From Aquificaceae bacterium (GTDB lineage: Bacteria; Aquificota; Aquificia; Aquificales; Aquificaceae), in NCBI GenBank assembly GCA_037925075.1, contig JAXSNR010000001.1:320001-384000 (forward strand): DNA of 64,000 nucleotides. Reading direction: 5' to 3'. Positions 16,485 to 29,730 of the stretch are shown piece after piece (the stretch's first letter is position 1; every line of letters starts with the position of its first letter). A program made the translations under genes and the position numbers. The notes beneath the pieces are model-generated. The model searched no databases and was not told the origin of the DNA. It saw only the letters and a list, made by a program, of their open reading frames with translations.

Positions 16485-17744
16485 ATGAAAAGGGTCCTTG
16501 TTTGGGGTCTTGGTGTAAGTGGAAGGTCTGCGGTGGAGCTATTGAAGGCTAAGGGCTTTGAGGTTTATGCGGGTGATGATGCAAGGGGTGATAGCTACAA
16601 GGAATATCTTGAGCTTGTGGATACAGTGGTGCTATCTCCGGGCATACCGCCAAGGCATCCTCTTTGGAGGGAAGCAGAGAAAAGAGGTATAGAGGTTATA
16701 GGAGAGCTTGAGTTAGCTTGGAAGTTTTTTAAGGGCAAAGCCTTAGCCATAACAGGCACCGACGGGAAATCCACAACCACAAGGCTCACATACCTTATGC
16801 TAAGGGAAACCTACGCCAACGTGGAAGAGGGAGCAAACGCAGGAAAGCCACTATCTGAGATAGTTTTGGGCAATCCTTCATGCCTTGCGGTCCTTGAGGT
16901 CTCTTCCTTTCAGGGAAAGACGCTAAAAACCTTTAGACCCATAGGGGGAGCCTTTTTGAACTTTTCCGAGGACCACCTTGATTGGCATCCAAGCCTTGGA
17001 GACTACCTTGAGAGCAAGAGGAACATATTCTCAAGACAAGAAGAAGAGGACTTTTTGCTTTTGAACGCCCAAGACCCAAGGGTAAAGGAAACGCCAAGCA
17101 AGGCAAGAAGTTTTTTTCTTCTCCAAGAAAGCTTGCATGGATACATAAAAGGGGGAAGGGCTTACTTTCTCGGTGAAGAGCTCTTTGAAGTGGAAAAGCT
17201 AAAAATAAAAGGAAAACACAACTGGCACAATGCCCTTTTTGCGTCCGCCATGGCAAGGCTTATGCAAGTACCAATGGAAGTCCTACAAGAGGTCCTTTAC
17301 AGCTTTGGGGGGCTTCCTTACAGAATGGAATACTTGGGAAGCTTTGGCGGTGTGGAGGTGTATAACGATTCCAAGTCCACCACCGTTAACGCCCTCAGGT
17401 CTGCCCTTGAAAGCTTTGATAGTGGAAAGGTGATCCTTATAGTGGGTGGAAGAGACAAGGGTGGGGATTTTGAGAGCATAAGGGAACTCGTTAAGAAGAA
17501 GACAAAGCTTAGCCTTATCATAGGTGAGGCAAAGGAAAGGATTGCAAGGGCGTGGCAAGGTTGTGAAACCTACTTGGTGAAAGACCTTGAGTCTGCAGTA
17601 TCAAAAGCCTTTGAGTTTGCAAAGCCTGGAGATGTTATTCTTTTCTCACCAGCCTGTGCTTCCTTTGATATGTTTAGAGACTACAAGGAAAGGGGAGAGA
17701 GGTTTAAGGAGTTGGTATTTAGGCACAGTGATAAAAATATATGA
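16485..17744 (+). CDS. murD: UDP-N-acetylmuramoyl-L-alanine--D-glutamate ligase
   Basis: GLGVSG, ITGTDGKSTTT, NDSKST and SPACASFD motifs. Confidence 0.95.
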   Translation: MKRVLVWGLGVSGRSAVELLKAKGFEVYAGDDARGDSYKEYLELVDTVVLSPGIPPRHPLWREAEKRGIEVIGELELAWKFFKGKALAITGTDGKSTTTRLTYLMLRETYANVEEGANAGKPLSEIVLGNPSCLAVLEVSSFQGKTLKTFRPIGGAFLNFSEDHLDWHPSLGDYLESKRNIFSRQEEEDFLLLNAQDPRVKETPSKARSFFLLQESLHGYIKGGRAYFLGEELFEVEKLKIKGKHNWHNALFASAMARLMQVPMEVLQEVLYSFGGLPYRMEYLGSFGGVEVYNDSKSTTVNALRSALESFDSGKVILIVGGRDKGGDFESIRELVKKKTKLSLIIGEAKERIARAWQGCETYLVKDLESAVSKAFEFAKPGDVILFSPACASFDMFRDYKERGERFKELVFRHSDKNI

Positions 17745-17753
17745 GATGGCGTA

Positions 17754-17810
17754 CTTCACATAATCTCAGCTTTGGGTCTTATGCCATCACAGTCAGGAAA
17801 GATAACTTTT
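17754..17810 (+). repeat. Degenerate copy of an internal sucC segment (19949-20005)
   Basis: Ungapped manual alignment gives 47/57 identical bases. Confidence 0.75.
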
Positions 17811-17945
17811 TGCCAGTTTGCAAACAAAGAGCTCCCCAACTGGAAAGGGCTATCCTTTCTTTTATTTAGTGCCCTCTGGATGTATTTCTCTTGTTTGATC
17901 CCTTGACAATGCAATAAATCATAAATAAAAAATATAATATTAAGC

Positions 17946-18080
17946 ATGGACAAGATTAAAAAATTTCAGGAACTACTTAGGGAGATTTTTGAGTTTGAAG
18001 CATCGGACCTTGACAGTGACTTTGGTGAAGCAGAGATTAAATATATTGAACCAGAGTTTAAAAGATTGGTGGAGGAATAA
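17946..18080 (+). pseudogene. Internally deleted Type III R-M methyltransferase (mod) remnant, 44-aa mini-ORF
   Basis: MDKIKKFQELLREIFEFEASDLD resembles the Mod N-terminus (KFQxLLRExFxFDxADLDFG), joined in frame to SDFGEAEIKYIEPEFKRLVEE*, which resembles the Mod C-terminus (IExEFKRL). Confidence 0.65.
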
Positions 18081-18081
18081 A

Positions 18082-19248
18082 GTGTTAAAATTAAGAGGGC
18101 TTTATTATATAACACACATTGATAATATCCCTTCAATTTTAAAGAGGGGTATTTTATGCCATAAAAAAATAGAAGAAGAGGGAATAGAATTTACTCCCAT
18201 CTATGATGCTAATATAGTTTCAAATAGAAAAAATATCAAGTCGCCTGATGGCAAAAGTTTATGGGATTTTGCCAATCTATATTTTCAACCAAGAAATGCA
18301 ATGCTTTATAGTTTAGTTTTTTCCGGTAGGATAAAAATGGAAGATTTAGCAATTATCGGATTGAGTGCTAACATATTATATGAAAAAGATGTTCTAATTA
18401 CCGATGGCAATGCGGCCAGTTCAGATACCAAGATTTTCTCTAAGAAAGAAGCGCAAGAACGAATAAAAGCTATCAGAAAACAAGTTGACAAAGAATGGTG
18501 GACATCTGAAGATGGTTCTAAAAGGAAGTTAATGGCAGAATGTTTAGTACCAGATGAGGTTCCTCCAAAATATATCAGTGAAATATATGTTCCAAACCAT
18601 GAATCGCTGAAAAAATTGCAATCTAAAATAGCAGGCTCAAATATTTCGATTATTCCGGAACCAGAATTGTTCTTTCTTCCTTCTCGTAGTATTAAACTCA
18701 CAGAAAATCTTTCACTCGTTGAAGGAGATATGTTTTTTTCAAGAATGCAGACATTAACTATAAGTGTTAATACTATGGGGGTGATGGGCAAAGGCCTTGC
18801 CTCAAGGGCTAAATATCAATTTCCTGATGTATATGTTAAATATCAGGATTTATGTAAGAATAAAACTTTAAGAATGGGTAGACCTTATCTTTATAAACGC
18901 GAAACATCGTTAGATTATATATTAGCGGATGAGCCTGGAAACTTGACTAACATAAATTCACAGACTTGGTTTTTGCTTTTCCCCACGAAAACTGATTGGA
19001 GGAAAAAGGCCAATTTAAATGGAATAGAGGAAGGATTAAAATGGCTTGTTAATAACTATAAAAAAGAAGGTATAAAGTCTTTAGCGATTCCAGCATTAGG
19101 TTGTGGACTTGGATGGTTACCATGGGGAATTGTAGGTCCTATATTATGCCGTTATTTACAAAAATTGGACATTCCCATAAAATTATATTTGCCTGTTGAA
19201 AAAAAAATTCCTGATGAACAACTTTCAAAAGAATTTTTACTTGGGTGA
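18082..19248 (+). CDS. DarT (DUF4433) DNA ADP-ribosyltransferase fused to a DarG-type macrodomain
   Basis: DarT motifs YYITH, LYFQPRNAMLY, TDGNAA, MAECLV. Macro motifs GDMF, VNTMGVMGKGLA, FPTK.DWR, SLAIPALGCGLG. One uninterrupted ORF, GTG start with GGAGG SD at 18071-18075. Confidence 0.88.
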   Translation: MLKLRGLYYITHIDNIPSILKRGILCHKKIEEEGIEFTPIYDANIVSNRKNIKSPDGKSLWDFANLYFQPRNAMLYSLVFSGRIKMEDLAIIGLSANILYEKDVLITDGNAASSDTKIFSKKEAQERIKAIRKQVDKEWWTSEDGSKRKLMAECLVPDEVPPKYISEIYVPNHESLKKLQSKIAGSNISIIPEPELFFLPSRSIKLTENLSLVEGDMFFSRMQTLTISVNTMGVMGKGLASRAKYQFPDVYVKYQDLCKNKTLRMGRPYLYKRETSLDYILADEPGNLTNINSQTWFLLFPTKTDWRKKANLNGIEEGLKWLVNNYKKEGIKSLAIPALGCGLGWLPWGIVGPILCRYLQKLDIPIKLYLPVEKKIPDEQLSKEFLLG

Positions 19249-19254
19249 TACTAT

Positions 19255-19424
19255 ATGAGCATAGAAAAATACCTTTGGAAAGCTTTATCATCTCAATAAC
19301 GCCGAAACGGGAGGTAATGAAATCTACAAATTATAACGATAATATCCTATTCCTTGAAAACGAAAATTGGGTAGAAATGCTTTTTGAAAAAATTTTGCAA
19401 CAGGTTGAGGGTCAAAAATCGTAG
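19255..19424 (+). pseudogene. Internally deleted Type III R-M restriction subunit (res) remnant
   Basis: MSIEKYL start joined out of frame to LESFIISITPKREV...NILFLENENWVEMLFEKILQQVEGQKS*, which resembles the Res C-terminus. Confidence 0.55.
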
Positions 19425-19513
19425 GTAGCATAAATTCTTACTTTCTTGTACTTTGCCAAATCGGTATGAGCTTTGTTATAATTTTCTGTCCATAAACCTT
19501 TACGGAGGCAGGC

Positions 19514-20668
19514 ATGAAACTGCATGAGCATCAGGCAAAGGAGCTTCTTAAAAAGTATGGTCTTCCTGTGCCAGAGGGAAGGGTAGCCTTTTCCCTTCAA
19601 GAAGCCATAGGTTTTGCGGAGGAGCTTGGTGAGTTTCCCCTTGTGGTAAAGGCTCAGGTGCATTGCGGCGGGCGTGGAAAGGCTGGCGGTGTAAAGCTTG
19701 TAAGAAATATGGAGGAGCTAAAGCAGGCGGTGGAGGGAATGCTTGGAAAGGTCCTTAAAACCTTTCAGTGCCCCGATGGAAAGCCAGTAAGTAGAGTTTG
19801 GATAGAAAAGGCAACCAACATACAAAAGGAGTACTACCTTTCCATAACCCTTGACAGGGCTGTTTCAAAGCCCATTTTGATGGCTTCCGCGGAAGGTGGT
19901 ATGGAGATAGAAGAGGTAGCAAAGGAAAAGCCGGAAGCCATACACATGCTTCACATAGACCCAGCCTTGGGACTTATGCCATCACAGGCAAGAAGGATAG
20001 CCTTTAAACTTGGATTGCCTGTAAATGACTTTGTCAAGACTGCCCTTGCCTTGTACAGGGCATACATAGAATTGGACGCAAGCCTTGTGGAGATAAACCC
20101 CCTTGTGCTTACAAAGGAAGGGAATCTTGTGCTTTTGGATGCAAAGGTGGAGATTGATGACAACGCTCTGATAAGACACAAGGACCTTGAAGAGCTTGAG
20201 GACCTTACCCAGCTTGACCCCCTTGAGGTGGAAGCCAAAAGGTACAGCCTTAACTACATAAAGCTTGATGGAAACATAGGCTGTATGGTAAACGGTGCTG
20301 GGCTTGCCATGACCACCATGGACATTATCAAGCTCGCAGGTGGAGAGCCTGCCAACTTCCTTGATGTGGGCGGTGGTGCCAACGTGGAGCAGATAGCCAA
20401 CGCCTTTAGGATCCTTATGGCGGACCCTAACGTAAAGGCTGTCTTTATAAACATCTTCGGCGGTATTCTCAGATGCGATAGGCTTGCTCAGGGGCTTATA
20501 GAAGCGGCAAAGATGGTAGATATTAAGGTCCCTGTGGTGGTGCGTATGGAAGGGACAAACGTGGAAGAAGGAAGAAGGCTACTGGCGGAGTCTGGGCTAA
20601 ACTTTATAAACGCAGTAGATATGTGGGATGGAGCAAAGAAGGCTGTGGAGTTGGCAAACAAAAGCTAA
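19514..20668 (+). CDS. sucC: Succinyl-CoA synthetase beta subunit
   Basis: [24 protein letters not shown] and NGAGLAM motifs. Confidence 0.95.
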
Positions 20669-26564: not shown

Positions 26565-28107
26565 ATGTTTGGTGCCACCTTTGGAATAGTAGCTCAGGGG
26601 CTTGAGCTTTTTAGAAAATCTGCGGACATAAGAAACAGAAACATACTAAACGCCAACAACCCCGATTATGCCCAAGAGGATCCAGTAATAAAAGGCTGGA
26701 GGACATAATAAGAAGTCAGAATTTTTACTACATGTCTCTCAGAAACCAAAAGCTCGCTTTAGTCTCTTCTCTTGATACCACCATAAAGGGAAACTCTCAG
26801 GTGGAAGACCTTTTTCAGGAGTTCACTCAGGGGCTGGGTGGTAGTGAATACATAAACCGCTTCTTCAACGCCTACCAAAACCTTATGAAAGAACCTACAA
26901 ACGAGGGAGCAAGAAGTGAGCTTATAAACTCCGCTCAAAGCCTTGTTTCTTATTTGAAAGACAGAAGAAAAGACATGGACAGGACTCTTGCTAGCACAGA
27001 CTACGATATGAGGCAGTATATAAACAAGGTGAACACCCTCGCAAAAAAGATAGCCCAGATGAAATACTCACGGGCTACGCCCAGACTTATGCCCGTGGTA
27101 AAGATTACAAAAACCTGCTGGATGAGAGGGACAGCTACCTAAGGGAGCTATCCGAACTCATCAACATAAACCTTCAAGAGGATGAAATGGGAAGGGTGAG
27201 GGTAGAAACCAGTCATGGGTTTGTGCTTGTGGAAGACCGCTACAGCTGGGAGCTAAAGTACGACGCCGGAAACAGAAGGGTTTTGTGGAAGTCAAAGGAT
27301 GGTTCAGAGGTAGACATAAGCGGTCTTATAAGCGGTGGTAAGATAAGGGGTCTTTTAGACTTTCAGCAAGACCTTTTGGGTTACATAAACCAGCTTGAAG
27401 GGCTTTCCAGAAGATTGATAAGCGAAGTAAAACTACCCCTGAATGCACAAGCAACCCAGAATTGGTTCTGGCTTAAAAATATTAGCGACCCAAACGCAGA
27501 CCTTGGCTTTTCCGGAAGCATAACCTTTAACTTCCCCGGTGGTCCTGTAGTCCTTAACTATTCATCCACAGATAGCCTTAACGACATAATAAACACCATC
27601 AACACAGACCCAACCCTGAGCACTTATTTTTCCGCAAGCCTTTTGCAAAATCCTGATAGCACCTACACGATGCAGATAACCGCCAACGACCCATCTTACA
27701 CTGTGCAAGACAGCAACAACCTTATACACAGGTCTGAACCTCTTTTTACTGGGACAGGTATTGGAGACATGGCTCTAAATTCAAACATTAACAACCACAT
27801 ACAGAACCTTGACTACGAAAAGGTGGATGAGTTTATGGATTTCTCAAGAGGCTGGTGGGAAATTGTAAAAGCTATATACAATCAGCTGGTAGATAGCGTA
27901 GCCTCAAGGCAAAGGGACCTAAGGACAAAGCACGAAATAGAAAACGCCCTTCTCAACTCTCTTAACGCAAGGCTTCAGGAGATGCAGGGAGTTTCTGTGG
28001 ATAATGAATTTATTGAGCTTATGAAGCTTCAAAGAAGCTACGAGGCCTTGGCAAGAACCATAAACGCCATGGACGAGATGCTTCAAGCTACACTTAATAT
28101 GGTGTGA
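26565..28107 (+). pseudogene. flgK: Flagellar hook-associated protein FlgK, broken by two frameshifts
   Basis: MFGATF...NILNANNPDYA stops at 26708. The second piece shifts frame near 27058. The third piece carries LLDERD and the C-terminal GVSVDNEFIELMKLQRSYEA. Confidence 0.85.
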
Positions 28108-29291: not shown

Positions 29292-29690
29292 AAAAATCCA
29301 TTTCCGGCTCCTTGGAGCCCTTCTTTGGGAAATTTATTAAAAAGCCCTCATTGAGGTCCTTAACTCCGCATATGAAGAGTGCCTTATGGATGCAAGGTAT
29401 GCCCTTAGTTGAACTACATGGCTATCGTTTAGCTTTTCTACAGCCTTTAACTCTATTATCAAAGGTTTTTCAATACATAACCCTTGGACGGTGCAGGGTC
29501 TTATTATGAAATCTGGTCTGCTCAATCCGATGGGTGTACCCTTATAGAAGATTTCTATGCTTACCTCCCTCTGAAAACGAAAGCCTCTTTGTCTAAGCTC
29601 ATAAGCTAAAGCACTCTGATATACGCTTTCATCAAAGCCTGAACCCAGATGCGTATAAACCTCCTTGTGCCAGCAATCTCTAAAAACCTT
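29277..29690 (-). pseudogene. GxxExxY (PD-(D/E)XK) family protein, frameshifted, 5' start unclear
   Basis: LGSGFDESVY, RPDFII and IIELKAV motifs. The conserved GFLINF tail lies in another frame after about 29358. Confidence 0.75.
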
Positions 29691-29700
29691 ACATAAAAAA

Positions 29701-29730
29701 CTTGACAAAGCTTTGCTAAAGTTTTATATT
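29701..29730 (+). promoter_or_regulatory. dnaK promoter with HAIR-like operator
   Basis: TTGACA-17-TATATT promoter; CTTGACA-N7-GCTAAAG at 29701-29721. Confidence 0.65.

Follow-up and report, generated by a model that had tools for sequence, protein, structure and literature searches.

Within a 64,000-nucleotide stretch of an Aquificaceae genome (contig JAXSNR010000001.1, positions 320,001 to 384,000; referred to here as the window, whose numbering is used throughout), one gene appears to join a DarT ADP-ribosyltransferase to the type of macrodomain that reverses its action. The locus raises the question of whether the two halves really form one protein and, if they do, how a toxin tethered one to one to its own antidote could be switched on.

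A single-chain DarT–macrodomain protein

The gene and its parts are as follows.

18082..19248, + strand: fused darT–darG(macro) gene encoding 388 aa, homologous to DarTG of T. africanus (PDB code 7OMU)
18103..18672, + strand: DarT ADP-ribosyltransferase domain, with Tyr9, Arg49, Tyr67, Met74, Asn110 and Glu153
18106-18108, + strand: Tyr9, at the ARTD His position in the 7OMV alignment
18226-18228, + strand: Arg49, equivalent of the proton-abstracting R51 in the 7OMV alignment
18538-18540, + strand: Glu153, equivalent of Thermus E160 by alignment
18709..19215, + strand: DarG/TARG1-type macrodomain with catalytic Lys303; DarG C-terminal domain absent
18988-18990, + strand: Lys303, equivalent of DarG K80, aligned with the FPTK motif of 5M31 and 5M3I

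The frame is open throughout and begins with GTG, with GGAGG at 18071-18075, six bases 5' of the start; the scan for promoter-like sites gave none for this gene. A sequence-only reading of the window had described one uninterrupted DarT and macrodomain ORF and suggested an HMM check, which confirms both halves. Pfam DarT (PF14487) matches residues 8–197 with an E value of 1.1e-48 and 166 bits (cut-off 22.5), Pfam Macro (PF01661) matches with an E value of 1.2e-6, and PADLOC places DarT on residues 7–198 and DarG on 211–378 (E of 1.9e-44 for DarG). The NCBIfam scores are under the equivalog cut-offs (96.5 of 150 and 139.9 of 250), with the DarG match extending to residue 379. Because the DarG matches cover only profile positions 3–152 of 329 in PADLOC and 3–156 of 338 in NCBIfam, the DarT-binding C-terminal domain of DarG is absent; no ORF for it was found downstream. 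The protein does end right after the macrodomain, as had been read from the sequence.

The predicted model of the fusion has a pLDDT of 85.5. The interdomain linker, PEPELFFLPSR, is short and highly conserved, and the block at residues 181–210 is modelled with a pLDDT of 88–95. An insert of about 15 residues near residues 273–292 of the macrodomain is present in part of the fusion family only. The idea that this insert stands in for the C-terminal domain was considered and weakened, since seven of 13 other aligned fusions, including both from the host's phylum, clearly lack it and it carries a net charge of just -2.

Assembled contigs from three runs, X2 (18461-19372), X3 (18500-19023) and X4 (18594-18924), span the junction of the two domains with 0 differences and 0 gaps, so that the hidden stop for which a read check had been advised does not occur in them. 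The three runs belong to one study, a fourth (X5) does not bridge the junction, and the single missense difference, found in one of the three, lies near the gene end. Two genes joined through a sequencing error might still have been suspected, as another gene of the window, flgK, lies in three frames and the assembly may therefore contain indel errors; but the junction is unchanged in independent contigs, the related loci are single ORFs in 74 of 80 cases, and such a single chain is known from a crystal structure. These observations refute the artefact.

That structure also answers an implied claim of novelty, which does not stand. A PDB search returned 7OMU, entitled 'Thermosipho africanus DarTG in complex with ADP-ribose' and released on 2021-06-23, as were the Thermus DarT entries 7OMV–7OMY. 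Its 406-residue chain matches residues 3–387 of the fusion with an E value of 3.8e-161 and superposes on the predicted model with a TM score of 0.91 and 62% identity (Z of 47.0, r.m.s.d. of 2.1 over 376 residues). Like the fusion, to which it is 62–63% identical over residues 3–388, it is a single chain of DarT and macrodomain that ends after the macrodomain, with Tyr at the ARTD His position, the macrodomain insert and the linker; its host lineage and genomic locus are different. In the deposited chain the catalytic Glu is replaced by Ala, as in deliberately inactivated DarT structures. The fused architecture is already known, in public since 2021 and in a widespread family, and the present protein is a 7OMU-type single-chain DarTG. 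We presume that 7OMU was reported by Schuller et al. 2021 (Nature 596:597) and served mainly as a structural model. No functional study of a natural DarT–macrodomain fusion was found in the literature searched, although the 2021 structure paper and its supplements may cover activity; the DarT/DarG passages of PMC9503650 do not mention a fused DarT–DarG.

Active sites, selection and family

Alignment with 7OMV, in which chain numbers minus 1 give the residue numbers published in PMC11543638 (passages on the Thermus enzyme), places R51, Y71, H119 and E160 at Arg49, Tyr67, Asn110 and Glu153, and M78 at Met74. Passages of the same paper assign the Arg, Glu, Met and Asn equivalents to transfer rather than binding, and those of PMC5179494 identify K80 as the FPTK lysine of the DarG macrodomain. 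Of the residues picked from sequence as catalytic, Glu153 and Lys303 were rightly chosen, as they align with E160 and K80. The other two were not: the His of the ITH motif (H12) corresponds to Thermus H16, which is not among the residues named in the passages of PMC11543638, and the Arg of FQPR (R71) corresponds to Thermus R75, the place of the proton-abstracting R51 being taken by Arg49. Tyr9 aligns with the His of YHITH in Thermus DarT and of WHFTH in 7YK3. We take this residue, Thermus H13, to be the His of the ARTD H-Y-E motif. With Tyr in its place, NAD+ use could be reduced or lost altogether; among four two-gene DarTs compared, one likewise lacks the ARTD His.

The active-site residues are almost fixed among the best 119 homologues, the gene itself excluded (Glu153, Lys303 and Met74 in 119, Asn110 in 118, Tyr9 in 117 and Arg49 in 115). 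Across the 80 related loci, Glu is found in 79, Lys in 78, Tyr9 in 75 and Arg49 in 73; the shortfalls are all gaps for Glu and Tyr9, one gap and one Ala for Lys, and three gaps and four other residues for Arg49. In 39 distant representatives, picked by matches to both halves although two align only as DarG, Glu is kept in 37 (with two gaps) and Lys in 38, and position 9 is Tyr in 28, His in six, Phe in one and a gap in four. Estimates of dN/dS, which are rough since dS is near saturation, are 0.09–0.24 for the DarT half (eight of 11 pairs computable) and 0.04–0.08 for the macrodomain (nine of 11); by these figures purifying selection acts on both halves.

Two-gene DarTG2 (Thermus, EPEC and mycobacterial DarT with a macrodomain DarG) shares with the fusion both catalytic domains and their order, and the fusion keeps the equivalents of R51, Y71, M78, E160 and K80. 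RM-operon association is also common to both, type III for the fusion and type I, often, for two-gene DarTG (passages of PMC5179494). However, three defining features are absent, so that the fusion is not a canonical two-gene DarTG2: it is one gene rather than two, it lacks the C-terminal domain that binds DarT, which spans about 180 profile positions, and it carries Tyr in place of the ARTD His (His13). Identity is only 18–24% to solved DarT2 and 28–37% to DarG macrodomains. The chemistry is probably the same. Asn110 was considered as a sign of guanine specificity and proved uninformative, since Asn occupies this position in the DarT2 chain 7YK3 as well; thymidine stays the default target because the eraser is of the TARG1/DarG type. 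DarTG1, the guanine-specific DarT1–NADAR system, shares the DarT fold, and its N104 matches Asn110, but the partner in the fusion is a macrodomain by profile and fold, not NADAR, and the DarT2-type Tyr71 equivalent is kept where DarT1 has Ser (passages of PMC11543638).

The suggested survey of the fused layout found it to be widespread. A homologue search matched 2486 of 5162 candidate proteins at E values up to 0.001, and the best 119 share 62–82% identity over 95–100% coverage. From 103 related GTDB stretches a set of 80 was retained, and the 74 with a single ORF over both halves come from bacteria and archaea; the hosts of the family include Chloroflexota, Cyanobacteria, Poribacteria, Thermotogota and Omnitrophota, archaea and others. 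The fusion family is thus broad, with both active sites kept. The six remaining loci are L030, L081, L039, L048 and the partial L035 and L040. Of the damaged copies, L030 has a stop at 348 and L048 is truncated at 290 next to a transposase, both in the macro half; the DarT half is hit in L039 (first 167 residues gone), L081 (stop at 23) and L100, which makes three DarT halves against two macro halves. In the host's phylum, DarT occurs in five of 178 genomes and is always fused: the gene of the window, three intact fusions at about 42% identity and one that is frameshifted.

Short DarT-only relatives gave a further 101 hits. Some distant fusions from the profile search have about 60–160 extra residues between the domains, or extensions; seven of 441–610 aa (P0265, P0267, P0268, P0275, P0282, P0285 and P0286) carry an unannotated interdomain segment or an N- or C-terminal extension, possibly a sensor domain. 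Plasmid and phage matches reach about 30–35% identity at best, and the four plasmid loci fetched are two-gene systems. An unannotated 7.5-kb phage record (H21, MT837167.1:879-1910) matches in one piece with 94% coverage and 31% identity and may hold a two-gene DarTG or a fusion.

The insertion between murD and sucC

The gene lies in an insertion with the following features.

17746..19464, no strand: whole insertion, murD to sucC promoter region, with TATGAG at 17740-17745 and 19465-19470
17754..17810, + strand: diverged internal sucC fragment, 82% identical over 57 bp to 19949-20005
17842-17860: terminator-like hairpin after the sucC fragment
17946..18080, + strand: type III RM mod remnant in which roughly 23 initial and 19 terminal codons are fused in one frame, with the loss of about 960 others
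19255..19424, + strand: type III RM res remnant, the first seven or so codons followed, in a different frame, by about 50 from the C-terminal end

The insertion is 1.72 kb long and of low GC. In four of eight genus loci (G008, G010, G016 and G024) murD joins the sucC promoter region with a single TATGAG, and in the other four murD is not adjacent to sucC; the empty-site form is also present in runs X2 and X4. The fusion gene has a GC content of 0.331 and a GC3 of 0.25, against a GC3 of 0.48–0.52 for murD and sucC, and GC as low as this occurs in five of 744 equal windows of the contig. It was not found in 40 relatives, and all 24 genus relatives searched lack it. Its nearest relatives, at 79–82% identity, belong to other phyla, and in a quick tree, which mixes phyla, starred branches lie between it and the three fusions of the host's phylum. 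By composition, empty sites and phylogeny, the gene was evidently acquired horizontally and recently inserted.

The position of the fusion in this murD–sucC insertion, between short remnants of type III mod and res, is what is new here. The mod remnant matches residues 1–25 (E of 8e-9) and 986–1004 (E of 1e-6) of the 1005-aa Mod of locus L033, which was identified by Pfam, and the res remnant matches residues 1003–1050 (E of 4e-7) of the 1058-aa Res of L002. The DNA match to both loci extends to 19275; the first res codons were assigned by inspection and from this match. Gene order in L033 is mod–fusion–res, all intact, and in L002 fusion–res. Loose contig ends from the same runs lead to the intact 5' end of a mod gene and to a mod–res junction that lacks the fusion, which fits the fusion as cargo. 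RM operons and defence hot spots carry the fusion along as cargo; in the window it has stayed intact while mod and res collapsed.

Neighbours in the related loci were classified with Pfam on 110 proteins (a single representative of each cluster in the case of direct neighbours) and are given as raw counts from a sample with many short contigs and with Poribacteria loci that are not independent. An RM or defence-type gene is directly adjacent in 17 of the 80 loci and within two genes in 21, and a type III mod or res lies within two genes in nine. In 59 loci no recognised defence gene was found within two positions, and many neighbours are housekeeping genes. Poribacteria (L043–L074) hold the fusion at a fixed chromosomal site beside large unannotated genes. 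GmrSD, HSDR_N, Eco57I-type, T5orf172 and transposase genes vary beside it, marking a defence hot spot.

The start of the insert (17754-17832) comprises the internal sucC piece and a short stretch resembling the sucC end, followed by the hairpin, and the island may stem from a sucC-linked site trimmed through several deletions. The genome also has a separate, intact type III RM pair of 885 and 994 aa on C2 (G000:C2:79650-85252), which belongs to a subfamily that differs from the remnants. Elsewhere in the genus, a degraded type III mod 5' remnant of the same kind (L094:10800-11050, genome G024) lies just upstream of type I RM operon-like genes. In this genus, a site of cassette exchange may be marked by such mod stubs.

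How a tethered writer might be fired

Given the one-chain architecture, the earlier argument that a 1:1 covalent fusion is not fired by simple loss of the antitoxin holds. Loss of the C-terminal domain alone leaves control in place, since the DarG macrodomain by itself rescues DarT toxicity in two systems while its Lys mutant does not (passages of PMC5179494 and PMC7003065), and for the same reason a fusion without this domain can be self-neutralizing. Two-gene DarTG restricts phage (passages of PMC11481870 and PMC13309987), and its trigger during infection is described as undetermined in passages of both papers, the former from 2024. A fused toxin–antitoxin activated by direct binding of a phage protein sets a precedent for switching that does not require the antitoxin to be lost (passages of PMC11481870). 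The window's protein is likewise one polypeptide, but its domains are unrelated and its antidote is an enzyme that acts on the product. We take the precedent to be CapRel. The antitoxin of CapRel blocks its toxin sterically.

We consider it likely, at a probability of about 0.5, that the fusion is a self-cancelling anti-phage enzyme whose tethered eraser would remove the marks that the writer would set on ssDNA. By analogy with two-gene DarTG2, the DarT half would ADP-ribosylate thymidine on ssDNA, and hydrolysis by the macrodomain would be enough to neutralize it without a C-terminal domain. In uninfected cells erasing would outpace a writer that is probably attenuated by the Tyr in place of the ARTD His. 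Phage infection might then tip the balance, most likely because ssDNA substrate surges or the macrodomain is blocked, and net DNA marks would stall phage replication. The conserved Arg49, Glu153 and Lys303, selection on both halves and the RM neighbours argue for this proposal. Against it stand the scan's failure to list a promoter-like site, the near-fixed Tyr9 with its possible cost to NAD+ use, the 59 of 80 loci without a nearby defence gene, the many housekeeping neighbours and the existence of macro-broken copies with no clear asymmetry, as such copies should be rarer if the DarT half were strongly toxic.

The protein could instead be mainly an eraser, with a DarT half that is nearly silent or binds DNA only and aims the macrodomain at ssDNA, where it would likely remove thymidine ADP-ribose left by DarT toxins of foreign origin or by occasional activity of its own. 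The roughly threefold stronger constraint on the macro half and the near fixation of Tyr9 in close relatives fit this proposal, as do stand-alone phage macrodomains that act as anti-DarT factors (passages of PMC13309987 and bioRxiv 10.1101/2025.11.20.689424). The near-invariance of the transfer residues Glu153, Arg49, Met74 and Asn110 (roles from passages of PMC11543638) argues in the other direction, and so do the six His among 39 distant representatives, which indicate that position 9 tolerates both residues, and the two-gene DarT that also lacks the ARTD His; we regard an eraser role as unlikely. It is also rather improbable that the fusion is a selfish or stabilizing hitchhiker of RM operons without a defence role, kept because damage to the macro half, or proteolysis of it, would free a toxic DarT. 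Its survival between a collapsed mod and res would suit such an element, as would its patchy spread (none of 40 relatives, five of 178 phylum genomes, a gene tree that mixes phyla) and the stabilizer role in RM loci proposed for two-gene DarTG (passages of PMC5179494). A clean deletion, however, takes both activities at once, so that post-segregational killing would need a cleavage step, for which the short, highly conserved and confidently modelled linker does not resemble a labile tether; empty-site and macro-broken alleles also exist.

A role in regulating host replication or dormancy through reversible DNA marks, written and erased at origin-like ssDNA, would agree with the conservation of both writer and eraser and with the fixed chromosomal position across many Poribacteria genomes. 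In its favour, Schuller in 2021 reportedly found that mycobacterial DarT targets the origin. Absence from the 24 genus relatives, low GC and recent insertion do not form a housekeeping pattern, and RM-type genes come and go even beside the Poribacteria site; a regulatory role of this kind is therefore quite improbable.

A wider and more tentative proposal is one that we would not yet favour: 7OMU-type fusions may be a large anti-phage branch with a deliberate DNA write–erase cycle that fires without antitoxin loss, through ssDNA load or a macrodomain block. Standard searches for two-gene DarTG would then miss them. The value of the fusion lies in its use as a tool for the question of DarTG activation, not in a new architecture: without the inhibitory C-terminal domain, antitoxin decay and sequestration are both removed, which isolates any remaining trigger.

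Two further observations concern the window outside the insertion. The flgK-like gene at 26570-28107 lies in three frames, corresponding to two frameshifts, and is either a pseudogene or an assembly error; we presume its identity from its location ahead of a flagellin-like gene. A small ORF, presumably GxxExxY-like, occupies 29337-29708 on the - strand, with the flagellar genes on one side and dnaK on the other.
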